DNA from: a virus | UHGV virus genome: UHGV-0126007 | DNA: 21,383 nt | Strand: one strand, 5' to 3' | Shown here: positions 2,093 to 14,495 of the stretch, in pieces | Position numbering within the stretch: the stretch's first letter is position 1 | Layout: each line of letters begins with the position of its first letter | Made by a program: the position numbers and the translations under genes | The notes under the pieces: generated by a model | What the model saw: only the letters and a program-made list of their open reading frames with translations | Database searches by the model: none | What the model was told of the DNA's origin: nothing

Positions 2093-2890
2093 TTATAGCT
2101 CCTTTAATCGAGGCGGTTCTGGTAGAGGCATCCAGTGGGTTACACCGCCAATTGGCTCATCGTCGTCGTACTCCAATGCGGCTATATAGAACCCGTCACG
2201 ACGAGAATAAGAAATCCCGGACATTACAATGCCATCCGAAACAACAATAATGTCACCCGTTTCTTTCGGCATTCGCTCACTACAGCTTATCCAACCATCC
2301 GGAGTCACCGGAAGCGAGAACGGCAGCACATCTCTGTGAACAAGTTTTTGCTGTGACAGGTTATCCAGAACTTTCTGTACTGCTGCATCACCGAATACAC
2401 CAAGCGCATCTGCCATAACTCCTACAACCTGATAAGCCTCAGCGCATACCGTGGATAAACCATCCGGAATTACCGGAGAGTTGCCGGGTTCTTTAATGTG
2501 CAAGCGAGGCTCACCATCTTTTGGTTCAGGCCACTGGCGCTCCATGTTGATCTTCAATTTATCTTCCATAGCAGCGGTAATTTCAGCATCGCTGATGCCA
2601 GCACGGCGCTGTGCATCCCACAACAGGAAATGCATATCAGCCCACTCGCTGAGATCGTCTGGTTCGGCTGCGGCTTCCAGAGCCTCTTTTGAGAGGTGTT
2701 TCAGTGGACCAATGGGGCCAACGCAGCCAAATGTGGAGTCAGACCATTTGGCATGCTCGTGGCGAATCAGTTCGCGTTCCAGTGATGCCAGTGCAATTCG
2801 TGCCAGTTCCATTTGTTCGCCACGAGTAAGCCCGTTTTCAAGCGGATTTTTAATGAACAATTCAATACGTTCTTTGGTAATAGTGGTCAT
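2093..2890 (-). CDS. Lambdoid accessory protein: MazG-like dNTP pyrophosphohydrolase-type region (DUF550-like) plus C-terminal DUF551-like domain
   Basis: Segment LSEWADMHFLLWDAQRRAGISDAEITAAMEDKLKINMERQW resembles the MazG-type NTP-PPase helix pair; C-terminus PDGWISCSERMPKE...VTHWMPLPEPP resembles DUF551 proteins common in lambdoid prophages. Family assignment from memory. Confidence 0.45.
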   Translation of the reverse strand: MTTITKERIELFIKNPLENGLTRGEQMELARIALASLERELIRHEHAKWSDSTFGCVGPIGPLKHLSKEALEAAAEPDDLSEWADMHFLLWDAQRRAGISDAEITAAMEDKLKINMERQWPEPKDGEPRLHIKEPGNSPVIPDGLSTVCAEAYQVVGVMADALGVFGDAAVQKVLDNLSQQKLVHRDVLPFSLPVTPDGWISCSERMPKETGDIIVVSDGIVMSGISYSRRDGFYIAALEYDDDEPIGGVTHWMPLPEPPRLKEL

Positions 2891-2900
2891 TTGTTAGTCC

Positions 2901-3698
2901 TTAAACTGCTAGTTGCAATTGCATTTCAAAGCGGTCGCGTTGTTCACAATACGCAAGAGAACCAGGGCTATTGTGTGCCTCAATCCGTTCTACCATTAAT
3001 GCTGCGCGTGTCTCTTTACTTGCAGGTGCATAAGCCCCAGACCAGGCTTTATCAATACCGATGTTTCGAGCGACGTTCGTACTATCTGCGCTGGCTAAGG
3101 GTAATTTTGTGAATATCAGCGGATTTAACATGCGCAATCCATGTAGTTTCGTAACCGGCTGACCATGCCCATCAACAATGTGACGAATCAGGTCTTTCAT
3201 TCTGGCTACCGCAAGAGTTGGGCGCTTTACGTCATAGTCGCCACAACTACCGATAGCCACTCGCGGAAACTCATTGCACAAATGAATAAATCGCGCGTCA
3301 CTTTCATTCATGTGCCACACTGGAACGCCAGCTAGTTTTCCGTGAGGCCACTCATTCAGAAGCGCATCATTTTCCTCCTCTCCGCCATCAATAATATCCG
3401 GGATAATGGCAAAATCGAATCCTGGGTGATTCTTCCAGCGAGCAACAAACTCGTAGTAATCGCTCCAGTCGATTTTGTTTTTGCCAGCTGCTTTCCAGGC
3501 GGTGAATGCACCGTTGTCCAGCGCGAACGACTGACAGTATTCAGCCGCGAGATTGATCTGGCCTGAATGCGCAAAACTGATAAACGCATGTCGCCCTTTC
3601 CATGCTCTCATTGCGCACGTATCAGGAGTAATAGGCCCACCGTGGTAGTGAATCATCTCACTCTCCTTTGATGCGAATGCCAGTAGCGCGGATTGCAT
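2901..3698 (-). CDS. TGT-fold protein (tRNA-guanine transglycosylase superfamily); candidate DpdA-like DNA 7-deazaguanine transglycosylase
   Basis: 265-aa ORF with FALDNGAF (compare TGT substrate-pocket motif DSGGFQ) and ADSTNVARNIG (compare TGT DCVLPTRSGRNG around the catalytic Asp). Sits in the accessory region of the PL operon. Confidence 0.4.
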   Translation of the reverse strand: MQSALLAFASKESEMIHYHGGPITPDTCAMRAWKGRHAFISFAHSGQINLAAEYCQSFALDNGAFTAWKAAGKNKIDWSDYYEFVARWKNHPGFDFAIIPDIIDGGEEENDALLNEWPHGKLAGVPVWHMNESDARFIHLCNEFPRVAIGSCGDYDVKRPTLAVARMKDLIRHIVDGHGQPVTKLHGLRMLNPLIFTKLPLASADSTNVARNIGIDKAWSGAYAPASKETRAALMVERIEAHNSPGSLAYCEQRDRFEMQLQLAV

Positions 3699-4065
3699 CG
3701 ATGACTTCAGAAACTTTGTATGCCATTACCGTTTGGTAATCATCGTGAAAATCTGTTCGATGAAGCATGCTGCTACGTTCCGGGAGCAGTATTTCCCGCG
3801 CTTCCAGTTCTGCAATGCGCTTTTTTGCTGCTTCCAGTTCATCCAGTAATTCCAGCACGGTAGCCGGATTAGCCTTGGCAACAAAATCCCGGACTGGCTT
3901 ACAATCAATCTCCGCAATGGGTTGATACGATGTGTAGCCATGCTGTCTTGTATAACTACCGTGACGAATAACGAAAAAATCACCATTTATTTTTTTAGCC
4001 TGCCACTTATCTTCACCGGCTTTCTCTGCCGCTTCACGCAGTGCCTGAGAGTTAATTTCGCTCAC
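3658..4065 (-). CDS. Ead/Ea22-like family protein (coiled-coil), 135 aa
   Basis: Contains ANPATVLELLDELEAAKKRIAELEA; the same motif (ANPATVLALLDELEAKDQRIAVL) occurs in the plus-strand paralogue at 12474-12887. 3' end overlaps the next ORF. Confidence 0.5.
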   Translation of the reverse strand: MSEINSQALREAAEKAGEDKWQAKKINGDFFVIRHGSYTRQHGYTSYQPIAEIDCKPVRDFVAKANPATVLELLDELEAAKKRIAELEAREILLPERSSMLHRTDFHDDYQTVMAYKVSEVIDAIRATGIRIKGE

Positions 4066-4283
4066 TTCGAACCTCTCTGTTTACTGATAAGCTCCAGATC
4101 CTCCTGGCAACTTGCACAAGTCCGACAACCCTGAACGACCAGGCGTCTTCGTTCATCTATCGGATCGCCACACTCACAACAATGAGTGGCAGATACAGTC
4201 TGGTAGTTCAGACGACGCATTTTTATTGCTGTGTTGCGCTGTAATTCTTCAATTTCTGATGCTGAATCAATGATGTCTGCCAT
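4062..4283 (-). CDS. TraR/DksA-family C4 zinc-finger protein, 73 aa
   Basis: Four Cys in two pairs (CCECGDPI ... CRTCASC) at the C-terminus after a short helical N-terminus; typical small TraR-like phage protein. Confidence 0.55.
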   Translation of the reverse strand: MADIIDSASEIEELQRNTAIKMRRLNYQTVSATHCCECGDPIDERRRLVVQGCRTCASCQEDLELISKQRGSK

Positions 4284-4381
4284 CTTCCATTAATCCCTGA
4301 ATTGTTGGTTAATACGCTTGAGGGTGAATGCGAATAATAAAAAAGGAGCCTGTAGCTCCCTGATGATTTTGCTTTTCATGT

Positions 4382-4663
4382 TCATCGTTCCTTAAAGACG
4401 CCGTTTAACATGCCGATTGCCAGGCTTAAATGAGTCGGTGTGAATCCCATCAGCGTTACCGTTTCGCGGTGCTTCTTCAGTACGCTACGGCAAATGTCAT
4501 CGACGTTTTTATCCGGAAACTGCTGTCTGGCTTTTTTGATTTCAGAATTAGCCTGACGGGCAATGCTGCGAAGGGCGTTTTCCTGCTGAGGTGTCATTGA
4601 ACAAGTCCCATGTCGGCAAGCATAAGCACACAGAATATGAAGCCCGCTGCCAGAAAAATGCAT
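4382..4663 (-). CDS. Hypothetical protein (likely starts at internal Met, MTPQQENALRSIARQ...)
   Basis: ORF on the leftward early transcript between the TraR-like gene and exo; no recognisable family. Confidence 0.4.
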   Translation of the reverse strand: MHFSGSGLHILCAYACRHGTCSMTPQQENALRSIARQANSEIKKARQQFPDKNVDDICRSVLKKHRETVTLMGFTPTHLSLAIGMLNGVFKER

Positions 4664-4673
4664 TCAGTGGTTG

Positions 4674-5027
4674 TCATACCTGGTCTCTCTCATCTGCTTC
4701 TGCTTTCGCCACCATCATTTCCAGCTTTTGTGAAAGGGATGCGGCTAACGTGTGAAATTCTTCGTCTGTTTCTACTGGTATTGGCACAAACCTGACTCCA
4801 ATTTGAGCGAGGCTATGTGCCATCTCGATACTCGTTCTTAACTCAACGGGAGATGCTTTGTGCATACAGCCCCCCCATTTATTATTTATCTCCTCAGCCA
4901 GCCGCTGTGCTTTCAGGGGATTTCGGATTACAGAAAGGCCGGGAAATACCCAGCCTCGCTTTGTAACGGAGTAGACGAAAGTGATTGCGCCTACCCGGAT
5001 ATTATCGTGAGGATGCGTCATCGCCAT
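4674..5027 (-). CDS. Hypothetical protein, 117 aa
   Basis: ORF immediately downstream of exo on the minus strand, overlapping the exo 3' end by about 10 nt; no recognisable family. Confidence 0.45.
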
Positions 5028-5698
5028 TGCTCCCCAAATACAAAACCAATTTCAGCCAGTGCCTCGTCCATTTTTTCGATGAACTCCGGCACCATCTCGT
5101 CAAAACTCGCCATGTACTTTTCATTCCGCTCAATCACGACATAATGCAGGCCTTCACGCTTCATGCGCGGGTCATAGTTGGCAAAGTACCAGGCATCTTT
5201 TCGCGTCACCCACATGCTGTACTGCACCTGGGCCATGTAAGCCGATTTTATTGCCTCGAAACCACCGAGCCGGAATTTCATGAAATCCCGGGAGGTAAAC
5301 GGGCATTTCAGTTCAAGGCCGTTGCCGTCACTGCATAAACCATCGGGAGAGCAGGCGGTGCGCATATTTTCGTCGCGATAGATGATCGGGGATTCAGTAA
5401 TATTCACGCCGGAAGTGAATTCAAACAGGGTTCTGGCGTCGTTCTCGTACTGTTTTCCCCAGGCCAGCGCCTTAGCATTAACTTCCGGAGCCACACCGGT
5501 GCAAACCTCAGCCAGCAGGGTGTGGAAGTAGGACATTTTCATGTCAGGCCACTTCTTTCCTGAGCGGGGCTTTGCTATCACGTTGTGAACTTCTGAAGCG
5601 GTGATGACGCCGAGCCGTAATTTGTGCCATGCATCATCCCCCTGTTCGACAGCTCTCACGTCGATCCCGGTACGCTGCAGGATAATGTCCGGTGTCAT
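5018..5698 (-). CDS. exo: Lambda exonuclease (Red-alpha), 226 aa
   Basis: [65 protein letters not shown]...[11 protein letters not shown] matches lambda Exo in sequence and length; start overlaps bet stop. Confidence 0.96.
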
Positions 5699-6480
5699 GC
5701 TGCCACCTTCTGCTCAGTGGCTTTCTGTTTCAGGAATCCAAGAGCTTTCACTGCTTCGGCCTGTGTCAGTTCTGACGATGCGCGAATGTCGCGGCGAAAT
5801 ATCTGGGAACAGAGCGGCAATAAGTCGTCATCCCATGTTTTATCCAGGGCGATCAGCAGAGTGTTAATCTCCTGCATGGTTTCATCGTTAACCGGAGTGA
5901 TGTCGCGTTCTGGCTGACGTTCTGCAGTGTATGCAGTATTTTCGACAATGCGCTCGGCTTCATCCTTGTCATAGATACCAGCAAATCCGAAGGCCAGACG
6001 GGCACACTGAATCATGGCTTTATGCCGTAACATCCGTTTGGGATGCGACTGCCACGGCCCCGTGATTTCTCTGCCTTCGCGAGTTTTGAATGGTTCGCGG
6101 CGGCATTCATCCATCCATTCGGTAACGCAGATCGGATGATTACGGTCCTTGCGGTAAATCCGGCATGTACATGATTCATTGTCCTGCTCAAAGTCCATGC
6201 CATCAAACTGCTGGTTTTCATTGATGATGCGGGACCAGCCATCAACGCCCACCACCGGAACGATGCCGTTCTGCTTATCAGGGAAGGCGTAAATTTCTTT
6301 CGTCCACGGATTAAGGCCGTACTGGTTGGCGACGATCAACAATGCGATGAACTGCGCATCGCTGGCATCACCTTTAAATGCCGTCTGACGAAGAGTGGTG
6401 ATCAGTTCCTGTGGGTCGACAGAATCCATGCCGACACGTTCAGCCAGCTTCCCAGCCAGCGTTGCGAGTGCAGTACTCAT
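5695..6480 (-). CDS. bet: Lambda Bet (Red-beta single-strand annealing protein), 261 aa
   Basis: [66 protein letters not shown]... matches lambda Bet. Confidence 0.96.
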
Positions 6481-6485
6481 TCGTT

Positions 6486-6782
6486 TTATACCTCTGAATC
6501 AATATCAACCTGATGGTGAGCAATGGTTTCAACCATGTACCGGATGTGTTCCGCCATGCGCTCCTGAAACTCAACATCGTCATCAAATGCACGGGTAATG
6601 GCTTTTTTGCTGGCCCCGTGGCGTTGCAAATGATCGATGCATAGCGATTCAAACAGGTGCTGGGGCAGGCCTTTTTCCATGTCGTCTGCCAGTTCTGCCT
6701 CTTTCTCTTCATGGGCGATCTGCTGGTAGTGACGCGCCCAGCTCTGAGCCTCAAGACGATCCTGAATGTAATAAGCGTTCAT
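6486..6782 (-). CDS. gam: Lambda Gam (RecBCD inhibitor), short 98-aa GamS-length form only
   Basis: [98 protein letters not shown] matches the C-terminal 98 aa of lambda Gam. The ORF track shows the frame does not extend upstream to a GamL-type start. Confidence 0.9.
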
Positions 6783-6857
6783 GGCTGAACTCCTGAAAAT
6801 GGCTGTGAAAATATCGCCCGCGAAATGCCAGGCTGATTAGGTAAACAGGAAAGGGGA

Positions 6858-7148
6858 TTAGTGATTCAGACCGTTGCCGCGCCCGTCGAGAAAAACTTCC
6901 ACGAGCAAGTCACGGGTATAAGTGCGCTCGATGCCGCGATGCAGATAAAGCCGTCCGCGTAAATTAGCTGATGCAGTCCAGGTACCATCTTTGTGTTTGA
7001 CCAGCATTCCTGGCATGACCGCACCGCGATTAACGGTCTGCGTTCCGTAATGTTGATGAACCATAAAAACTCCTGCCCGTAAGCTGGGCTGCTGAACATA
7101 TAAAGACTTCTGCGCGTATTCAGGCGGTGGATGGCCGCCGGTTGTCAT
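6858..7148 (-). CDS. Hypothetical protein, 96 aa; first gene of the leftward early operon (kil/N position)
   Basis: First ORF downstream of the predicted PL; no arginine-rich motif, no similarity to N, Kil or cIII that I can recognise. Confidence 0.4.
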   Translation of the reverse strand: MTTGGHPPPEYAQKSLYVQQPSLRAGVFMVHQHYGTQTVNRGAVMPGMLVKHKDGTWTASANLRGRLYLHRGIERTYTRDLLVEVFLDGRGNGLNH

Positions 7149-7339
7149 AACTAAGCCGCCTCGTTGAAGCGACTAAGGTATGAAATGTTGAGTTGATTTC
7201 AGCTGGTCACACCGACGTTCACGCGTCCGTTTCATCCCTCGCACTACCCGAAGCCTGCTGAAATTCAAGCTGCGGATCTAAGCGGTCATCGCAACGGTGA
7301 AACAGGTGGTTACCGTATCGTTGTGTCGTTGCGATGAAT

Positions 7340-7420
7340 TTATTTAAAACTATAGTTGTTTTATCGTCAACAACAAAAGTTGTTTTATCGGTTGTTTTAA
7401 ATATAACTGGTTGTATTTAG
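7340..7420 (-). promoter_or_regulatory. PL promoter with OL operators (leftward early promoter)
   Basis: On the minus strand: -35 TTGACG (plus 7365-7370), 17-nt spacer, -10 TTAAAT (plus 7342-7347). Promoter and spacer are nearly identical to the predicted PR (TTGACT-17 nt-TAATCT). Flanked by repeated GTTGTTTTA / AACAAC half-sites similar to the OR half-site GGTTGTT. Confidence 0.6.
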
Positions 7421-7508
7421 GATGGATTTATTTTGTGACTTGCATCGCATAGCGATAACTGAAGTGAGGTCGTGGTGGTTTTTTGAACGGTGTGTGATGA
7501 GGGGAGGG

Positions 7509-7536
7509 CAAAATAAAACCCGGCACGGTGGCCGGG
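7509..7536 (-). terminator. Rho-independent terminator ending the cI-cargo operon (tImm-like)
   Basis: Stem CCCGGC / GCCGGG (7519-7536) with 6-nt loop; on the minus strand it is followed by UUUUAUUUUG. Sits downstream of the 147-aa gene and upstream of PL. Confidence 0.7.
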
Positions 7537-7613
7537 TTTAGATGATTGGTTAAGAGCGAGGGTAATGGGGAATGAAAAATCGCTTTACCTAATGCAAGGG
7601 TGCGAGCATTTTC

Positions 7614-8057
7614 TTAAGCACTAAAGAAAAAGTACATTGATAGCTTATAAAGTCCTGTTCCTGCAGCGATGATTGCTGGAACACCAAGCAATACCGCAAG
7701 CTTTGCGTCTGAAATCTTTCTATCGACAGCATCACTTGATGGCTTGTTTGTTAAGGATTCTTTTATAGAGTCCAGACGTGCAAGAATAGTTATCATATTT
7801 TTGTCGATAGCTTTAACGTCTGTTTTAAGTTCATCAACGTCTCGTTTGATATGAGCAACATCGGACTCCAGTTTTGCAACTTTTTCAGGCATGTTATCAC
7901 TCCCAGACCCACTGCTACCACTTGATTGTAGCATGTCCCATCTTTTTCCAGATATACCTGCTAGCTGGGAAGACGCACTGGAGTGCAAACAAAATGATTT
8001 TGCCGCCTTTGCAATTTTATCATTTAGGTTTGGAGCTTCGTAATAATCGTGTTTCAT
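7614..8057 (-). CDS. Tail-anchored coiled-coil membrane protein, 147 aa (rex-position cargo gene B)
   Basis: Gly/Ser-rich linker (SSGSSGSGSDN), heptad-like coiled coil (KVAKLESDVAHIKRDVDELKTDVKAIDKNMITILARLDSIKESL), C-terminal hydrophobic helix (LAVLLGVPAIIAAGTGLY). Architecture resembles XhlA-type phage membrane proteins (analogy only). AT-rich by eye. Confidence 0.5.
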   Translation of the reverse strand: MKHDYYEAPNLNDKIAKAAKSFCLHSSASSQLAGISGKRWDMLQSSGSSGSGSDNMPEKVAKLESDVAHIKRDVDELKTDVKAIDKNMITILARLDSIKESLTNKPSSDAVDRKISDAKLAVLLGVPAIIAAGTGLYKLSMYFFFSA

Positions 8058-8069
8058 AATTAATTACGA

Positions 8070-8333
8070 TTAGTTTGTTTTAGCTTTGTCATGCTGGTCG
8101 CGAATGAAGTCAGCCAATTTAAGCATCAATTCTTCGGGCATTCTAATGGTTGCAATGTTGTACTTTATGTTCTCAACATCGTCACTTTCATCAACAGGCC
8201 ATTCAGTTACATTATGAAAAAAAGAAATTGAACCTAGGCGCTGAGAGCCGTCACCAAACGAAGAGTAGCCAAACGCGTCGGCGTATGCATCGACACAGTT
8301 ATTTGATTTTTTAACAAGTGTTTTATTACTCAT
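8070..8333 (-). CDS. Hypothetical small soluble protein, 87 aa (rex-position cargo gene A)
   Basis: ORF directly downstream of cI on the same strand and 12 nt upstream of gene B; AT-rich; no recognisable family. Confidence 0.45.
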   Translation of the reverse strand: MSNKTLVKKSNNCVDAYADAFGYSSFGDGSQRLGSISFFHNVTEWPVDESDDVENIKYNIATIRMPEELMLKLADFIRDQHDKAKTN

Positions 8334-8415
8334 TTTTTGCCTTTCCCGTAATGTTATTTTTTATAAGGTATTTTCTTCAGCGTATTACCCAAAAGCCTCA
8401 TCAACACGCGGCTGA

Positions 8416-9105
8416 TTATCCGTGTTTTCTGTACGTCTGCGGCATGCTCCCAATAACCTTACCGAATATGAATACCCGGTTCATCTCGTCTTTCTCGATC
8501 GGGTCCCACGGTGAGTAGCTCTTGTTATCAGAGATAACCAGTAGCTTATCCTTCATCATTTGCAGGCGCTTTACATGGGCGGTGTCGTCATACAGAAACG
8601 CATAGATGCCATCACCGTCGAAAGATTTAACAGTGATATCAACGAACAGCAGGTCACCTGGTTCGATCGTCCCTGACATGCTGTCACCTCGCACGTTAAT
8701 GATGCGGATATTTTCCGCCTTCCTGCCATCGAACATGTGACGAGCATCGTCAAACGAGTACTCAACCGAGCGTAGAACTTCTACAAACTCACGGTTGATT
8801 ACACCTGGCCCGGCACTGACTTCTATATCAAGAACGTCAATTTTGAAGTATTTGGAATGGCTGACAGTTGATTGTATTGGTTGCACTGTACTGTCTGACA
8901 TATTTCCAACGCCAGAAGATAACCATTCTGCGCGTACACCCAAAGCGTTCGCGATCTCCACGATTTTAGTTGTTTGGTTAGCTTTCCCTGTTTCGATTTT
9001 CTGAATAGCAGCCTGGCTAACCCCGACCAAATCCCCAAGCGCCTTTTGTGTAAGGCCTCGCGCTAATCTGGCTTCTTTAAGTCTTTCTGAGAGTGTTGTT
9101 TTCAT
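8416..9105 (-). CDS. CI-like prophage repressor (N-terminal XRE-type HTH, C-terminal S24/LexA-like autopeptidase domain), 229 aa
   Basis: HTH region LTQKALGDLVGVSQAAIQKIETGK; C-terminal domain with the S24 nucleophile motif (NVRGDSMSGTI) and downstream Lys (HVKRL); divergent from a Cro-like gene across an operator region. Confidence 0.85.
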   Translation of the reverse strand: MKTTLSERLKEARLARGLTQKALGDLVGVSQAAIQKIETGKANQTTKIVEIANALGVRAEWLSSGVGNMSDSTVQPIQSTVSHSKYFKIDVLDIEVSAGPGVINREFVEVLRSVEYSFDDARHMFDGRKAENIRIINVRGDSMSGTIEPGDLLFVDITVKSFDGDGIYAFLYDDTAHVKRLQMMKDKLLVISDNKSYSPWDPIEKDEMNRVFIFGKVIGSMPQTYRKHG

Positions 9106-9209
9106 AGATCAAATGTACAACCAAGGTTTTATTTCATCAAACGAAAATGGTTGTTGACTAAAAACAACCATAGTTTTAATCTTGATTCGGATTAACCACG
9201 GAGGTTGTT
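9106..9209. promoter_or_regulatory. OR region: divergent PRM/PR promoters with operators
   Basis: PR: -35 TTGACT (9154-9159), 17-nt spacer, -10 TAATCT (9177-9182). Operator with 9-bp inverted repeat ATGGTTGTT-N7-AACAACCAT (9147-9171) overlapping the -35; SD GGAGG before cro. Confidence 0.65.
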
Positions 9210-9440
9210 ATGAACCCAGCAATCAAAACAGCGATCAATATCGTTGGTTCACAAAAGAAACTAGGCGATGCCTGCGAAGTTTCACAGCAGGCCGTCTATA
9301 AGTGGCTTCACAACAAAGCAAAGGTATCCCCTGAACATGTCGGCAGCATTGTTACGGCTACTGGTGGAGTTGTGAAGGCATACCAGATTCGCCCGGATCT
9401 TCCGAAGTTGTTTCCACACACCGAAAAGAACGCAGCTTAA
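9210..9440 (+). CDS. Cro-like HTH regulator (Cro/YdaS-type), 76 aa
   Basis: Small HTH protein (GDACEVSQQAVYKWL) transcribed divergently from the repressor from the PR-like promoter. Confidence 0.7.
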   Translation: MNPAIKTAINIVGSQKKLGDACEVSQQAVYKWLHNKAKVSPEHVGSIVTATGGVVKAYQIRPDLPKLFPHTEKNAA

Positions 9441-9452
9441 ATTTCCATTTCA

Positions 9453-9465
9453 CGCTCTTTAACAA
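9453..9465 (+). promoter_or_regulatory. boxA-like antitermination element (CGCTCTTTAACAA) in the rightward early transcript
   Basis: Matches the boxA consensus CGCTCTT(T)A and, from recall, nearly the whole rrn boxA (GCTCTTTAACAA) 13 nt after the cro stop; no boxB-like hairpin follows. Confidence 0.5.
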
Positions 9466-9509
9466 TAAGCAATCAACTTAACAGTCAATTCAAACTAAAG
9501 GAGTCAATT

Positions 9510-10049
9510 ATGCAACCACTTACATACCAACAGACTAGCGGATTTATTCCGACTGCGGTGATAAATCGTTCTCAAACAAAACAAGCTCCAGGCCACGAAA
9601 AAATCCGTGATGCCGTCCGCGCCTGGTCGGCTGTAGATAATCAGGATGTCGTTGCCGCACTCATTGTGAATGAGTATCGGGAGCAGGGCGACGGCACCAT
9701 CGATTTCCCTGATGATGTCAGCCGTGCACGCCAGAAGCTGTTCCGCTTCCTCGATAACAAATTCGATTCTGAAAAATACCGAAATAACGTGCGTGAACTG
9801 ACCCCGGCAATTCTGGCGGTACTACCGCTGGAATATCGCGGTTACCTGGTTGAGCAGGATAGCTTCATGACTCGGTTGGCTGAAATGGAAAAGGAACTCA
9901 GTGAGGCAAAACAGGCTGTCATTCTCAACGCACCACGCCACCAGAAACTGAAGGAAATGAGTGAAGGTATTGTGTCGATGTTTCGTGTGGACCCGGATCT
10001 GGCTGGTCCATTAATGGCGATGGTGACCACCATGCTGGGGGCAATATGA
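9510..10049 (+). CDS. Protein in the cII position, 179 aa; possibly a YdaT-family CII analogue
   Basis: Gene order repressor / Cro-like / this ORF / replication genes. Segment TPAILAVLPLEYRGYLV is reminiscent of YdaT-family proteins (weak, memory-based). Not lambda CII. Confidence 0.3.
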   Translation: MQPLTYQQTSGFIPTAVINRSQTKQAPGHEKIRDAVRAWSAVDNQDVVAALIVNEYREQGDGTIDFPDDVSRARQKLFRFLDNKFDSEKYRNNVRELTPAILAVLPLEYRGYLVEQDSFMTRLAEMEKELSEAKQAVILNAPRHQKLKEMSEGIVSMFRVDPDLAGPLMAMVTTMLGAI

Positions 10050-10135
10050 CAGGTCCAGAAATGGCGAAAGTCGGTCTGCGGGAACAGAACCGACTTTCAG
10101 GTGCAAATCGTAACACACTCATTGCGGGAGGAATT

Positions 10136-11065
10136 ATGGCAAACACTGCTGAGATATTCAATTTTCCAGTGCCGGATGCGGCACAAAAGGAGCCGCGCGT
10201 GGCAGATCTCGATGATGGTTATACGCGCATTGCAAATGAGTTGCTGGAAGCTGTGATGCTGGCCGGATTAACACAGCACCAGCTTCTGGTCTTCCTGGCT
10301 GTCATGCGCAAAACATATGGCTTTAATAAAAAACTGGATTGGGTGAGCAACGAGCAACTTTCCGAGTTGACCGGGATATTGCCGCACAAGTGTTCTGCTG
10401 CAAAAAGTGTTCTGGTAAAGCGTGGGATTTTTATTCAGAGCGGGCGGAATATCGGCATTAATAATGTGGTCAGTGAATGGTCAACATTACCCGAATCAGG
10501 TAAGAAAAATAAAGTTTACCTGAAAGAGGTAAATTTACCTGAATCAGGTAAGAAAAGTTTACCCAAATCAGGTAAAGGCACTTACCCGAATCAGGTAAAC
10601 ACAAAAGACAAACTAACAAAAGACAATATAAAACCTTATTCGTCCGAGAATTCTGGCGAATACTCTGACCAGCCAGAAAACGACCTTCCTGTGGTGAAAC
10701 CGGATGCTGCGATTCAGAGCGGCAGCAAGTGGGGGACAGCAGAAGACCTGACCGCCGCAGAGTGGATGTTTGACATGGTGAAGACCATCGCGCCATCAGC
10801 CAGAAAACCGAATTTTGCAGGGTGGGCTAACGATATCCGCCTGATGCGTGAGCGTGACGGGCGTAACCACCGCGATATGTGTGTACTGTTCCGCTGGGCA
10901 TGCCAGGACAACTTCTGGTCCGGTAACGTGCTGAGTCCGGCCAAACTCCGCGACAAGTGGACCCAGCTCGAAATCAACCGAAACAAGCAACAGGCTGGCG
11001 TGACAGCCGGCAAACCAAAACTCGACCTGACGAACACTGACTGGATTTACGGGGTGGATTTATGA
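10136..11065 (+). CDS. O: Replication initiator O: non-lambda N-terminal origin-binding domain with lambda-type C-terminal P-interaction domain; the frame is open from 10046
   Basis: N-terminus MANTAEIFNF...VADLDDGYTRIANELLEA...RKTYGFNK follows the lambda O pattern but is divergent. C-terminus WANDIRLMRERDGRNHRDMCVLFRWACQDNFWSGNVLSPAKLRDKWTQLEINRNKQQAGV...DWIYGVDL matches lambda O. Start preferred at ATG 10136 with SD GGGAGGAA. Confidence 0.85.
   Translation: MANTAEIFNFPVPDAAQKEPRVADLDDGYTRIANELLEAVMLAGLTQHQLLVFLAVMRKTYGFNKKLDWVSNEQLSELTGILPHKCSAAKSVLVKRGIFIQSGRNIGINNVVSEWSTLPESGKKNKVYLKEVNLPESGKKSLPKSGKGTYPNQVNTKDKLTKDNIKPYSSENSGEYSDQPENDLPVVKPDAAIQSGSKWGTAEDLTAAEWMFDMVKTIAPSARKPNFAGWANDIRLMRERDGRNHRDMCVLFRWACQDNFWSGNVLSPAKLRDKWTQLEINRNKQQAGVTAGKPKLDLTNTDWIYGVDL
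10487..10640. repeat. ori: Replication origin inside the O gene: four to five ~18-bp iterons plus adjacent AT-rich region
   Basis: Direct repeats TTACCCGAATCAGGTAAG, TTTACCTGAATCAGGTAAG, TTTACCCAAATCAGGTAAA, CTTACCCGAATCAGGTAAA plus a degenerate copy, each with internal dyad TTACC...GGTAA, followed by ACAAAAGACAAACTAACAAAAGACAATATAAAACC; same layout as lambda ori. Confidence 0.85.
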
Positions 11066-11763
11066 AAAACATCGCCGCACAGATGGTTAACTTTGACCGT
11101 GAGCAGATGCGCCGGATCGCCAACAATATGCTGGAACAGTACGACGAAAAGCCGCAGGTACAGCAGGTAGCGCAGATCATCAACGGTGTGTTCAGCCAGT
11201 TACTGGCAACTTTCCCTGCGAGCCTGGCTAACCGGGATCAGAACGAACTGAACGAAATCCGCCGCCAGTGGGTTCTGGCTTTCCGGGAAAACGGGATCAC
11301 CACAATGGAACAGGTTAACGCAGGAATGCGCGTAGCCCGTCGGCAGAATCGACCATTCCTGCCATCACCCGGGCAGTTTGTTGCATGGTGCCGGGAAGAA
11401 GCATCCGTTATCGCCGGACTGCCAAACGTCAGCGAGCTGGTTGATATGGTTTACGAGTATTGCCGGAAGCGAGGCCTGTATCCGGATGCGGAGTCTTATC
11501 CGTGGAAATCAAACGCGCACTACTGGCTGGTTACCAACCTGTATCAGAACATGCGGGCCAATGCGTTGACTGACGCGGAATTACGGCGCAAGGCTGCCGA
11601 TGAACTGTCCTGTATGACCGCACGAATTAACCGTGGTGAGGCTATACCTGAACCAGTAAAACAACTTCCTGTCATGGGCGGTAGACCACTTAACCGGGCT
11701 CAGGCTCTGGCGAAGATCGCAGAAATCAAAGCTAAGTTCGGACTGAAAGGAGCCAGTGTATGA
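11062..11763 (+). CDS. P: Lambda P replication protein (DnaB helicase loader), 233 aa
   Basis: MKNIAAQMVNFDREQMRRIANNMLEQYDEKPQVQQVAQIINGVFSQLLATFPASLANRDQNELNEIRRQW...AKFGLKGASV matches lambda P; start overlaps O stop. Confidence 0.95.
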   Translation: MKNIAAQMVNFDREQMRRIANNMLEQYDEKPQVQQVAQIINGVFSQLLATFPASLANRDQNELNEIRRQWVLAFRENGITTMEQVNAGMRVARRQNRPFLPSPGQFVAWCREEASVIAGLPNVSELVDMVYEYCRKRGLYPDAESYPWKSNAHYWLVTNLYQNMRANALTDAELRRKAADELSCMTARINRGEAIPEPVKQLPVMGGRPLNRAQALAKIAEIKAKFGLKGASV

Positions 11764-12053
11764 CAGGCAAAGAGGCAATTCTTCACTACCTGAAAACGCA
11801 CCGGACTTTCTGCGCGCCGGATGTAGCTGCGGCAACAGGCGCAACAGTAACCAGCATAAATCAGGCTGCGGCTAAAATGGCGCGGGCAGGAATCTTGGTC
11901 ATTGATGGTAAGGTCTGGCGAACGGTGTATTACAGATTCGCTACCAGGGAAGAACGGGAAGGAAAGGTGAGCACTAACCTGATTTTTAAGGAGTGTCGCC
12001 AGAGTGCCGCGATGAAGCGGGTGTTGATGGTTTGGGGGAGGGTAGGGGTATGA
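11760..12053 (+). CDS. ren: Lambda Ren, 97 aa
   Basis: MTGKEAILHYLKTHRTFCAPDVAAATGATVTSINQAAAKMARAGILVIDGKVWRTVYYRFATREEREGK... closely matches lambda Ren from recall. Confidence 0.85.
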   Translation: MTGKEAILHYLKTHRTFCAPDVAAATGATVTSINQAAAKMARAGILVIDGKVWRTVYYRFATREEREGKVSTNLIFKECRQSAAMKRVLMVWGRVGV

Positions 12054-12250
12054 GCATGATGGATTTCGCAGAAACTAAAAAGGCTATCGACGCCATCACA
12101 ACCGACTGGTCTATCCGAGGACCGTATCACGAAGACGACGGGAAATATTACGCCTTGCTTCGTGGAGAGTGGGTTGGTGGCGGGTATATCGGAAAACGGA
12201 AAGCCCTTGATGCCATTCTCGAAAAGTTAATCCAGGAGGCCGCCCAATGA
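12050..12250 (+). CDS. Hypothetical nin-region protein, 66 aa
   Basis: ATG at 12050 overlaps the ren stop (ATGA); the ORF continues in frame to 12250 and its stop overlaps the next start. Confidence 0.4.
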   Translation: MSMMDFAETKKAIDAITTDWSIRGPYHEDDGKYYALLRGEWVGGGYIGKRKALDAILEKLIQEAAQ

Positions 12251-12477
12251 GCAACATCGACAAACCAATGACAAACCGTGAACTGGTGGATGCCGCCATT
12301 GAATTGGCCGGAGAGTTTTATGCGATGCAGGGCTATTCGCATCGTCCTGGCTTCAAGTATTGGCAATCTCCGCACCCGCATGAGCGCCTGTGCTTTGAAA
12401 TGGCTTGCGTGGCATTCGAAACCATTCGCGGCTCAGATGTAATGGACGCCGTATCTGAGTTGGAGGATGAAGAATGA
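12247..12477 (+). CDS. Hypothetical protein, 76 aa (starts MSNIDK, as does the next gene)
   Basis: Translationally coupled ORF (ATGA overlaps at both ends); shares the N-terminal MSNIDK with the downstream Ead/Ea22-like ORF. Confidence 0.45.
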   Translation: MSNIDKPMTNRELVDAAIELAGEFYAMQGYSHRPGFKYWQSPHPHERLCFEMACVAFETIRGSDVMDAVSELEDEE

Positions 12478-12887
12478 GCAACATCGACAAACGCGCATTA
12501 CGTGAAATCGCTGAGGCAGCAGTTGGTGCGCATGAGCGCCTTAGTGTTATGCCGCCTGATGACATTTTCGATATCTCACTGGCAGAAGGAACTCAGCTTG
12601 ATGCAGATATCACTGCCTTGAACGCGCTGAACTCCGCAGCCAACCCAGCCACAGTGCTGGCGCTGCTGGATGAGCTGGAAGCCAAAGACCAGAGGATTGC
12701 TGTGCTGACCGAATCGCTCAAGCAGACGGTTTCAGGATACAAATCCTGCCTGCGTACCGGACATGAGCGCATTCTTGACCTTGGCGGTGACTGTGACGCG
12801 CCAGAAGTGATGATTGCAGGCAATCCTGACATTCAGCAGGCGCAGAAGCTGATCGCCGCCGCATCCGGTAAAGGAGAGGCATCATGA
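12474..12887 (+). CDS. Ead/Ea22-like family protein, 137 aa (paralogue of 3658-4065)
   Basis: Contains SAANPATVLALLDELEAKDQRIAVLTESL, matching the motif in the minus-strand ORF at 3658-4065. Confidence 0.5.
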   Translation: MSNIDKRALREIAEAAVGAHERLSVMPPDDIFDISLAEGTQLDADITALNALNSAANPATVLALLDELEAKDQRIAVLTESLKQTVSGYKSCLRTGHERILDLGGDCDAPEVMIAGNPDIQQAQKLIAAASGKGEAS

Positions 12888-13690
12888 GCACTATTACCAA
12901 ACAATGGCTGCAGCAGAAAATTGCCGACATGGAAGCAGCCAGAGATGAAATCCCGTTCGGTCTGGACGAAGGCGACAGCAACACGCTGGCGGCACTGCGT
13001 ATCGCGCTGGCATCGCTCGAAGCGGAGCCTGCCATTCACCGGTGGCGTCGTGTGACCTCTGAGCCATACGGCCCCTATCCTTGGCATTATGGTGATTTTA
13101 TCGGCTTCTCAAAGCCCGTTGATGGGATTGAGGATGAGTATTTTTACTCCGCCCCGCCAGAGCCAGCCAATGCCGAAACCGTAGCCTGGCTGTGGTCACA
13201 CAGGAAACACCCGAGCGAAGTCACGCTTGTTCGCCCTGAAGATGATGAGAGAGCGGAGGGTGCTCACTGGTCTGGCTGGAGTTGTCAGGCGCTTTATGCA
13301 GCACCGCCAGTTCCGGTATCTGTGCCCACATTCGAGAAATGGTGTGAGTTGACTGAGCAGAAACCTGTCGGATGGGTGCGTGATGCTATGAAAGAAGCGT
13401 ATGACGGATGCCGCGACGCCATGCTTCAGGGTGCCGAAAAAGCCGAGTCGCCCACCACCATGCAGACCGCGCCAGCCCTAGATTCTTCGCCAAAAATTTC
13501 CGAGTCGCCCGTCAGCAACTCTCCGGTGATTCCGGATGGTTGGGTGCTGGTTCCTAAGGAGCCAACTCCAGAAATGCGTGAGGCGTACCATCAGGCGCAG
13601 GAAGAGTGTGAAGATGGCGGTAGATTATGGAGCCCAGACCACCAATGGAAGGCCATGATCGCAGCAGCACCGCAGCAGGAGGCGAAGTGA
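12884..13690 (+). CDS. Lambdoid accessory protein, 268 aa; shares N-terminal and NSPVIPDGW segments with 2093-2890
   Basis: N-terminus MSTITKQWL...LAALRIALASLEAE parallels MTTITKERI...ELARIALASLEREL of the minus-strand protein; shared NSPVIPDGW; C-terminal VPKEPTPEMREAYHQAQ...WKAMIAAAP. Confidence 0.5.
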   Translation: MSTITKQWLQQKIADMEAARDEIPFGLDEGDSNTLAALRIALASLEAEPAIHRWRRVTSEPYGPYPWHYGDFIGFSKPVDGIEDEYFYSAPPEPANAETVAWLWSHRKHPSEVTLVRPEDDERAEGAHWSGWSCQALYAAPPVPVSVPTFEKWCELTEQKPVGWVRDAMKEAYDGCRDAMLQGAEKAESPTTMQTAPALDSSPKISESPVSNSPVIPDGWVLVPKEPTPEMREAYHQAQEECEDGGRLWSPDHQWKAMIAAAPQQEAK

Positions 13691-13741
13691 TTATGTCGTG
13701 ACAGCATAATTGCGATGTCAACGATAAGCAGAGGTTTGAAA

Positions 13742-13936
13742 ATGAAATCACAATCACCAGTGCAGCATGAAGTTAACATCGACGGCAAAGAGTATGTTGT
13801 CACAGTAGTCCAAACCGGCAAGTCAACGTGGAGGGCATGGGGAGATTCCTGGGGGCGCCATATAGTCGAAACAGGTTCTAGCGAACATAGCGCGCTTTCT
13901 CATTGGAAAGCAAAAGCTTTAGTTATGAATGGGTAG
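13742..13936 (+). CDS. Hypothetical small protein, about 64 aa (the frame is open from 13715)
   Basis: ORF with SD-like AGAGG about 9 nt upstream of ATG 13742; no recognisable family. Confidence 0.35.
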   Translation: MKSQSPVQHEVNIDGKEYVVTVVQTGKSTWRAWGDSWGRHIVETGSSEHSALSHWKAKALVMNG

Positions 13937-13949
13937 CGCGGAAACTTTG

Positions 13950-13985
13950 AAGGTATAATCCCCTCAAATAATCGAGGGGGTTTTT
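13950..13985 (+). promoter_or_regulatory. Hairpin (CCCCTC...GAGGGGG + T-run) immediately upstream of the moron start codon, with a TATAAT hexamer just upstream
   Basis: TATAAT at 13953-13958, then stem CCCCTC / GAGGGG with 8-nt loop and TTTTT running into the ATG at 13986; the 3' arm GAGGGGG doubles as the likely Shine-Dalgarno. Confidence 0.45.
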
Positions 13986-14495
13986 ATGTCTGGTTGGGAT
14001 AACGGTATAGATGCAGTTTCTGCGATTGCAGCTATCGCATCTGCGGTAGCAACTTATTTAGCATGGCGATCCTCAGAAGCTAGCAGGGCCACATCCGAAA
14101 AAGCTTTGCAGTTGCAAGGAAAGCAGTATTTGTACGAGACATTAAAAGCTTGCGCTGAGAGAGCGAATTCATACTCAAAAGGAAAGAAAGGGGCTGACTG
14201 GAGCTTTCATGACGCAGCCAATATTGTTCGATGTTTGAACATGGCAATGGGGAGCATAATAAATTACTCAGATACCAACAATCAGGATGCAATGAAAGGT
14301 CTGAAGCAATTCTTTATTAGTCAATTAAACATGGAGCTTTTTGAAGAGCTCAACTATGAGGTTGGGCCTGATGCCTTCTTTCACGGAGAGGAGCTAACCA
14401 GCATGACGAGCGATATTTACTCGCAGTGGTTAAACATTATTTCATTCTTTAACCTCATGATTGTCACAGATGATGACCTCGCCGATGAAACATAG
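13986..14495 (+). CDS. Membrane-anchored protein of unknown function, 169 aa (AT-rich moron in nin region)
   Basis: N-terminal hydrophobic helix (AVSAIAAIASAVATYLAW) followed by about 140 aa of soluble domain; composition visibly more AT-rich than flanking genes; bracketed by a hairpin upstream and a 187-bp non-coding spacer downstream. Confidence 0.55.
   Translation: MSGWDNGIDAVSAIAAIASAVATYLAWRSSEASRATSEKALQLQGKQYLYETLKACAERANSYSKGKKGADWSFHDAANIVRCLNMAMGSIINYSDTNNQDAMKGLKQFFISQLNMELFEELNYEVGPDAFFHGEELTSMTSDIYSQWLNIISFFNLMIVTDDDLADET

Follow-up and report, generated by a model that had tools for sequence, protein, structure and literature searches.

Two oppositely oriented accessory-gene blocks of a lambda-type prophage remnant as probable members of a shuffled lambdoid gene family

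The Ea22 genes of lambdoid phages are mosaics in which a common N-terminal and coiled-coil part is joined to unrelated C-terminal domains, and several variants can occur in one genome (PMC10834534). Ea22 is pro-lysogenic (PMC7093339) and forms a tetramer with variable C-terminal domains (PMC7093339, PMC10834534); the significance of the K/RGE tripeptide at the C terminus of Ea22 proteins has been reported as unknown (PMC7093339). DUF551 is a portable domain found on Ea22 variants, on YfdS and on the MazZ-type pyrophosphohydrolase (PPase) (PMC10834534). For phage mosaicism in general, a model of "short conserved boundary sequences" has been summarized, together with the statement that most mosaic joints lack such sequences (PMC3029335). 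Here, we analyze two blocks of such accessory genes in UHGV-0126007, a virus genome of 21,383 nucleotides (nt) that we call the window. The left block holds the minus-strand genes Ead-L (3658-4065) and L2 (2093-2890), and the right block holds the plus-strand genes Ead-R (12474-12887) and R2 (12884-13690).

A preliminary description had read these four genes as two pairs of paralogues that flank the recombination/immunity/replication core in inverted orientation, about 8.5 kb apart. The four open reading frames (ORFs) are indeed present at these coordinates and on these strands, and the RefSeq annotation of Escherichia coli O176:H45 MIN9 agrees except that PGAP splits 2093-2890. The left block lies on the PL side, in the exo-xis interval of the leftward-transcribed pL operon, and the right block lies on the nin side, in the ren-ninB/ybcN interval of the rightward-transcribed pR operon, with a measured spacing of ~8.4 kb. 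The blocks are oppositely oriented because pL and pR transcribe divergently. The observation was thus confirmed in part, and its interpretation is partly supported: kinship at the level of the gene family and exchange at the level of the population were borne out, and duplication or inversion within this genome was not. We consider it probable that the two blocks are independent members of a large, mosaic and shuffled family of lambdoid early accessory genes, and that the motifs that they share are module junctions plus an Ead core rather than traces of a duplication or an inversion.

Patch-wise similarity between the two blocks

The reverse-complemented left block was compared with the right block by BLAST, and the window was compared with itself. 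Neither comparison contained an extended inverted repeat between the blocks. Instead, we found four islands: (i) a 27-nt inverted match between 2458-2484 (minus strand) and 13515-13541 (plus strand), with 26 of 27 nt identical (96%), one central mismatch and a longest perfect run of 13 nt; (ii) a 22-nt match between 2291-2312 (minus strand) and 13522-13543 (95% identity); (iii) a 21-nt match at both start codons (90% identity); and (iv) a 71-nt match in the Ead core (72% identity), with its right partner at 12639-12707. Homology at the DNA level is nowhere extended, and in the L2/R2 pair it takes the form of patches and not of gene-length similarity. The genes upstream of each block (4062-4283 and 12247-12477) are unrelated to each other.

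At the protein level, the shared motifs are real and exceed chance in both pairs. Ead-L and Ead-R are 39% identical over their first 88 amino acids (aa) (E=2e-10), and both match the Ead/Ea22 profile PF13935 above its gathering score of 27 bits (Ead-L, E=2.6e-17, 64.1 bits; Ead-R, E=5.5e-24, 85.7 bits); Ead-L also matches phrog_1667 (E=1.7e-56). The similarity claimed for this pair holds for the N-terminal part but not for the C-terminal halves, which do not align and are unrelated. Both proteins have the layout of the family, namely an N-terminal part, a variable C-terminal domain and a K/RGE tail: Ead-L, in the exo-xis region, joins the Ead N-terminal/coiled-coil domain to a C-terminal domain of its own that ends in IKGE, and Ead-R, in the ren-ninB interval, joins a similar N-domain to a different C-terminal part that ends in KGEAS.

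Each Ead gene has its closest relatives in other phages. Ead-L is itself a mosaic: it has 93.5% identity to one IMG/VR locus in residues 1-93 and 73-82% identity to other loci in residues 70-136, compared with 37.5% to Ead-R. The boundaries of these matches fall at residues 70-93, and the ANPATVLELLDELEA core (3829-3873, minus strand), where the 71-nt island is found, lies in the overlap zone of the N-side and C-side relatives. In its residues 1-87, Ead-R has 79-90% identity to pL-arm genes in phages mEp043, mEp213, CurroJimenez and Dewey, and a full-length relative with 59% identity lies in the pL arm of phage Louie. A tblastn search of a phage collection with Ead-R listed nine records, a small number that is probably due to the E-value limit and low-complexity filtering, and is no census. 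Of the two genes, Ead-L lies in the part of the pL operon that runs from the recombination genes to xis, and Ead-R lies between ren and ninB; the exo-xis location is typical of the Ead/Ea22 family but not strictly defining.

L2 and R2 resemble each other only in their leaders (37% identity over 68 aa, E=4e-5, the leader itself being ~50 aa) and in a linker of 8-9 aa (E=0.002); these parts are similar as described, but the two are not paralogous as whole genes. L2 consists of a leader (aa 1-40, MTTITKERIELFIKNPLENGLTRGEQMELARIALASLERE, 2771-2890 on the minus strand), a dATP/dGTP pyrophosphohydrolase domain (aa 42-137), a first linker, a spacer module, a second linker and a DUF551 domain (aa 199-260). 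The pyrophosphohydrolase domain covers profile positions 1-96 of 97 of PF04447 (E=1.1e-41, 141.4 bits, cut-off 23 bits), DUF551 matches PF04448 (E=7.3e-14, 52.8 bits, cut-off 22 bits), and segments of L2 have PHROG matches in addition to these Pfam domains. R2 consists of a leader (aa 1-50), two modules of unknown type, an AMLQG junction, a low-complexity spacer, the linker NSPVIPDGW (aa 212-220) and a C module that reads VLVPKEPTPEM...AAAPQQEAK. R2 matches no Pfam family, neither PF04447 nor PF04448, and has PHROG matches to segments; its relatives include proteins with a DUF551 or a PPase (PF04447) domain. The motif NSPVIPDGW, said to be shared, is present as such in R2 but reads NSPVIPDGL at the first linker of L2 and LPVTPDGW at the second. 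The 27-nt island encodes the first L2 linker (NSPVIPDG, 2458-2484) and its R2 counterpart (13515-13541), and the 22-nt island encodes the second L2 linker, directly 5' of DUF551.

When R2 was aligned with 44 homologues, the only invariant or nearly invariant columns were the start, ALASLEAEP, (Y)xAPPxP, AAMLQG, GNSPVIPDGW and AAAPQQEVK, and the segments between these junction motifs were swapped or absent among the homologues. An AlphaFold2 (AF2) model of R2 was poor (mean pLDDT 52.7, mosaic alignment). Its confident parts were the leader (aa 1-47), modeled as a helical hairpin, and the C module (aa 221-265), modeled as two helices; confidence was low for residues 48-146 and 181-220, which include the linker. 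The model is consistent with beads on a flexible string.

The L2 ORF is intact and encodes 265 aa. In the annotated locus (L001 18389-19186), PGAP has nevertheless divided it into a 120-nt pseudo-fragment, "DUF550, missing C-terminus," and a shorter coding sequence, and so treats the L2 leader as a fragment of another protein. L2-type leaders head many linker genes in IMG/VR, and the split has the look of an artefact to which the mosaic leader gave rise.

The ends of these genes carry a second kind of conserved element. In both Ead copies, the K-G-E codons have the sequence AAAGGAGAG, 5-7 nt upstream of the next ATG. At 3661-3669 (minus strand), they would serve as the Shine-Dalgarno sequence of a TGT-like gene (2901-3656, minus strand) whose ATG follows the Ead-L stop codon (ATCAAAGGAGAGTGAGATG); at 12870-12878 (plus strand), they would serve R2, the ATG of which shares the sequence ATGA with the stop codon of Ead-R (AAAGGAGAGGCATCATGAGC). 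Among the fetched loci (L003-L140), 48 of 81 Ead-like ORFs end in [KR]GE, and in 47 of these 48 a Shine-Dalgarno-like tetramer is followed 4-13 nt on by the start codon of the next gene, the downstream genes being diverse. The conserved K/RGE tail appears to be explained by the embedded ribosome-binding site of the next gene. The conserved tail APQQEAK of R2 (13667-13700, plus strand) likewise holds the Shine-Dalgarno-like GCAGGAGG, followed by the two-codon mini-ORF ATG TCG TGA, and an AAAPQQEVK tail recurs across most C modules. At the end of L2 (2060-2100, minus strand), a Shine-Dalgarno-like AAGGAG precedes a tiny ORF of GTG plus seven codons. These mini-ORFs look as if they were the starts of former downstream genes, severed at a mosaic joint.

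Gene starts, too, resemble mosaic joints. Two adjoining genes have an exact direct repeat of 20 nt, ATGAGCAACATCGACAAAC, at their starts (12246-12265 and 12473-12492): Ead-R and a 76-aa ORF (12247-12477, plus strand) whose beginning (MSNIDK) is identical to that of Ead-R over these 20 nt. The proteins are similar only in residues 1-18, and the 76-aa ORF matches positions 106-178 of the 179 of phrog_4132. Among the R2 homologues, MSNIDK and MSTITK starts are swapped, and it is from this interchange and the start repeat that the joint-like character of gene starts follows.

Junction conservation and reticulate module combinations

An exchange between the 27-nt islands would give rise to two junctions; these were built in silico, and both are in frame. 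In 5,426 complete E. coli genomes, neither junction was found at a query coverage of 80% or more. One query was covered to 78%: E. coli E-93 and related strains join the L2 leader, PPase and linker to a "GWVMVPKELTPEM..." module, which belongs to the same class as the last module of R2 (the "VPKExTPEM" C module). This natural chimera is found in an ordinary left arm, and its similarity to R2 stops 35 nt beyond the linker. It pointed to the linker as a general joint.

We scanned IMG/VR with the exact pattern CCGGTNAYTCCGGATGGTT and obtained at least 120 loci. All figures from this survey apply among the matches listed, and the exact-pattern scan imposed part of the codon set. Translation of the ORFs around the linker gave PV(I/T)PDG(W) with many unrelated sequences on either side, and a large share of these genes begin with the leader M(S/T)TITK...ARIALASLEAEP. 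To define modules, the 45 aa upstream and the 35 aa downstream of the linker were clustered at 50% identity. The 128 linker genes fell into 47 upstream and 40 downstream classes, which are joined in 95 combinations with 36 four-gamete quartets. Module combinations in this family are thus reticulate, and the module exchange suggested in the preliminary description has support at the level of the population.

In pairs of genes that differ on both sides of the linker, nucleotide identity is ~0.25 (random) up to position -12 and ~0.5-1.0 from -9 to +21. It rises over GGN AAC TCN, stays near 1 through the linker, including most wobble positions, and is random again by ~+50. A scan of IMG/VR with a degenerate back-translation of the linker found one codon set, mostly CCG GTA ACT CCG GAT GGT TGG, in 104 of the 120 loci listed (87%). 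When genomes from all taxa (596 Gb) were scanned with this degenerate pattern, 1 of the 120 matches listed had that codon set; these are mostly chance matches in unrelated taxa and serve as a rough control for codon choice only. Given near-identity across the linker, unrelated flanks and fixed codons, the linker is an island of ~30 nt of shared DNA between otherwise unrelated modules. Within it lies the palindrome TCCGG-N5-CCGGA (2463-2477 and 13522-13536 in the window), whose loop contains the variable wobble positions; rare linker variants break the stem without compensation.

Ead neighbors of the linker genes were counted by a profile search. Among 125 informative linker genes, 12 have an Ead domain in the same ORF, 23 have one directly upstream, 43 have one farther upstream but within 2.5 kb and 47 have none, so that 78 of the 125 have it in the same ORF or on the same strand no more than 2.5 kb upstream. 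The order Ead, then leader gene, is a recurrent neighborhood, and this is the kernel of truth in the idea of a cassette.

The family occurs in both arms. Loci were assigned to an arm by co-orientation with pL or pR markers, the marker proteins being taken from three reference loci as well as from the window. This placed 59 linker genes in the pL arm and 29 in the pR arm, left 10 ambiguous and found 42 without a marker; the right arm thus accounts for 29 of 88 classifiable loci. A P-like marker taken alone was contradictory, being co-oriented with int in several loci, and the statements about both arms are therefore based on loci that have a nin, ren or rusA marker. The order ren, linker gene, ninB/ninE is clear in five loci (L009, L020, L049, L081 and L100). 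The same C modules, at 94-95% nucleotide identity, occur with differing partners in the right arm, at loci with rusA downstream, and in the left arm, at loci with erf/abc upstream.

A shuffled gene family and its alternatives

If the blocks are, as seems probable, independent members of a shuffled family, each N-antiterminated early operon would hold one block of non-essential genes, in exo-xis for pL and in ren-ninB for pR. The proteins would resemble beads on a string, starting at the N terminus with a helical head (an Ead/Ea22 N-domain with its coiled coil, or the MTTITK...ARIALASLEAEP leader) and continuing with one to three interchangeable modules, such as the dATP/dGTP pyrophosphohydrolase, DUF551, a "VPxEPTxEM" helical module, a zinc ribbon and modules of unknown type. 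Short conserved junctions (LEAEP, AAMLQG, (G)NSPV(I/T)PDGW and the tail APQQEVK) would separate the modules, and the gene ends would hold the ribosome-binding site of the next gene. The ~30-nt islands may then act as short patches of homology for exchange between lambdoid genomes that share one cell: Red, Erf/RecT or RecA recombination between co-resident prophages and infecting phages could swap modules by paired crossovers at islands. A module would move between arms only through two flanking crossovers, which the multiple junctions could provide. By family membership, the products would be early-expressed modulators, with Ea22-type proteins favoring lysogeny, the PPase hydrolyzing dATP/dGTP and the TGT-like protein acting as a base-exchange enzyme.

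Several points weigh against this explanation. Recombination at the islands is deduced from sequence patterns, and the same pattern could result from illegitimate recombination if selection then favored joints at a linker that tolerates them structurally; in that case, the shared nucleotides would be due to a recent common ancestry of Enterobacterales prophages. Because related prophages are among the IMG/VR matches listed, the counts do not stand for independent events; the degenerate scan, which gave the 87% figure, has a control of different base composition; and the arm calls depend on a limited marker panel in which the P-like marker is unreliable alone and which left the 42 loci mentioned above without a marker. 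The model of R2, moreover, is poor. A stronger version of the same explanation, in which the ~30-nt islands are maintained as dedicated recombination joints, strikes us as rather doubtful. The main joint would be GGN AAC TCT CCG GTA ACT CCG GAT GGT TGG, and the LEAEP and AAMLQG junctions and the gene ends that contain a Shine-Dalgarno sequence would be joints of the same kind.

There are three further possibilities. The junctions might be kept for a function of the protein or the RNA, for example because they give flexibility and resistance to proteases, serve as a peptide for binding or form a small hairpin, with modules shuffled by illegitimate recombination and nucleotide identity irrelevant. 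The linker is indeed predicted to be unstructured and the palindrome is present, and embedded ribosome-binding sites account for the gene-end motifs (KGE, PQQEVK), which makes nucleotide constraint without recombination plausible for some junctions. However, a constraint on the peptide does not predict wobble positions that are nearly fixed in 87% of the loci listed, including those of GTA and ACT, which are uncommon codons in E. coli. Moreover, the rare variants leave the small stem broken, and the breakpoints of identity coincide with the island edges. We regard this possibility as unlikely.

Alternatively, an ancestral two-gene cassette of Ead and leader gene could have been duplicated in inverted orientation in this lineage and have diverged, with the TGT-like gene inserted later on the left. 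Gene order is the same in both arms, with translational coupling in each, both pairs are similar at the family level, and an Ead gene followed by a linker gene is frequent elsewhere. Against this, each gene is far closer to genes of other phages (73-93% identity) than to its partner here (37-39%), and since the closest relatives of each Ead gene lie in other phages, the pair did not arise by duplication within this genome. Besides leader and linker, L2 and R2 have no module in common, and both arms are ordinary homes for the family. In addition, the trio of Ead, TGT-like gene and leader-PPase gene recurs as a unit in the P22-like left arm (with Erf and Abc2) of a prophage of another type, in E. 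coli E-93. The TGT-like gene therefore belongs to a traveling unit and was not specially inserted into the left copy of a duplicated cassette, as had been proposed. A common ancestral cassette thus survives only as the recurrent gene order, and a local duplication is very unlikely.

Finally, the inverted islands could be a working substrate for inversion of the recombination/immunity/replication core, for which the in-frame 96% match over 27 nt, the two intact chimeric ORFs that it would give and the PPase-linker-"VPKExTPEM" architecture found in nature could be cited; but efficient RecA-dependent exchange in E. coli needs roughly 25 nt of identity as a minimum and the perfect runs here are 13 nt, the chimeric junctions occur in 0 of the 5,426 genomes, the natural chimera soon leaves the R2 sequence in its ordinary left arm, the three genomes in which both blocks occur (100% identity) have the arrangement of the window (equal orientation and 7,590-nt spacing) and no invertase gene is present among the window ORFs or in the annotation, so that inversion is highly improbable. 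The 27-nt island is a poor substrate, and the blocks are not an inversion substrate.

If the islands were indeed maintained as dedicated joints, the rather doubtful stronger version above, early phage proteins would be diversified by combinatorial domain shuffling across both operons and across lambdoid phage types, presumably driven by an arms race with functions of the host or of rival phages. The mosaicism of Ea22 and the portability of DUF551 are already published, and in this respect the present case is an instance of a known phenomenon and an ordinary lambdoid feature. For the codon-level fixation of intragenic junctions and the number of partners that they join, we found no description in the literature. 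Codon-fixed junctions that link dozens of unrelated modules offer a concrete and testable case for the old boundary-sequence model, inside genes. Short shared motifs of this kind mark module junctions and not paralogy of whole genes, and they mislead automatic annotation, as when PGAP splits an intact ORF. The explanation of the KGE tail and the notes on junctions may be useful to annotators and to researchers of the exo-xis region.

Prophage setting and comparison with known systems

Annotated E. coli prophages identical to the window exist, strains MIN9 and QDFD216 being examples of carriers, and RefSeq already names exactly these genes. Its ORF map and the identical annotated stretch of MIN9 identify it as a lambda-type prophage remnant at the ybhC-side att site. 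The gene order in the left part is int, xis, an ea8.5-like gene, the left block, a TraR/DksA (orf73-like) gene, exo-bet-gam, kil, a cI-like repressor gene and cro; in the right part, it is a YdaT-type gene, O, P, ren, four small genes, the right block, ybcN/ninB, ninE, rusA, Q and the lysis genes. The core (~4100-12030) is 95-97% identical to many lambda-like phages, and this similarity ends at the 3' end of ren. The remnant is ~21 kb long (L001 1-4600 corresponds to the right end of the window and beyond), with an ompC-like porin gene after Q; the lysis genes essD/rrrD/rzpD directly adjoin trkG, and head and tail genes are absent from the remnant.

Four 22-nt direct repeats (TTACCCGAATCAGGTAAGAAAA and variants) lie at 10487-10603 (plus strand) within the O-like replication gene and are presumably origin iterons, which are ordinary in lambda-type O genes. 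Three plus-strand ORFs of the ren-ninB insert (11993-12250, 13715-13936 and 13986-14495) are almost without relatives among the fetched loci. None of the three has a Pfam match; of the two scanned against PHROG (11993-12250 and 13715-13936) neither matched, nor did either of the two scanned against NCBIfam (13715-13936 and 13986-14495). A terminator-like hairpin (13957-13982) lies 5' of the 169-aa ORF at 13986-14495.

The TGT-like gene, which is translationally coupled to Ead-L, encodes a TGT/DpdA/Cap10-like TIM-barrel protein and is a candidate transglycosylase. Its product has a TGT-type TIM-barrel fold, and PHROG 887 is its only family match: it matched no Pfam or NCBIfam family and no PDB sequence, even when a 38-sequence profile was run against PDB, and it does not belong to TGT by sequence profile (PF01702 or the DpdA subfamily models). 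NCBIfam gave no match for any of the eight proteins scanned. The TGT-like gene is directly followed by the leader-PPase gene both in the window (2093-3656, minus strand) and in the P22-like prophage of E. coli E-93 (L002 5137-6541).

Compared with the DpdA and CBASS Cap10 chains, the TGT-like protein is short (251 aa versus 325-577 aa), with 8-14% identity, and no preQ0 synthesis genes lie nearby. L2 resembles the described proteins with DUF550/PF04447 (MazZ-like PPase) and DUF551/PF04448 in having both domains with strong scores, and RefSeq annotates the identical gene accordingly; R2 differs in having neither domain, sharing only the leader, the junction motifs and the tail. Both Ead copies match the profile of lambda Ea22 and P22 Ead (PF13935, IPR025153), and Ead-L has the characteristic setting in exo-xis beside the TraR/DksA (orf73-like) gene and the KGE end. 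The shared N-terminal/coiled-coil part with differing C-terminal domains is the mosaic pattern described for Ea22 (PMC10834534, PMC7093339), whereas the position of Ead-R in the pR operon, between ren and ninB, lies outside exo-xis. As in the boundary-sequence model, near-identical short DNA islands stand at gene starts and ends, and here also at domain boundaries, with unrelated flanks and many combinations; unlike in that model, the joints here lie inside coding sequence, between protein domains, and there are several per gene.

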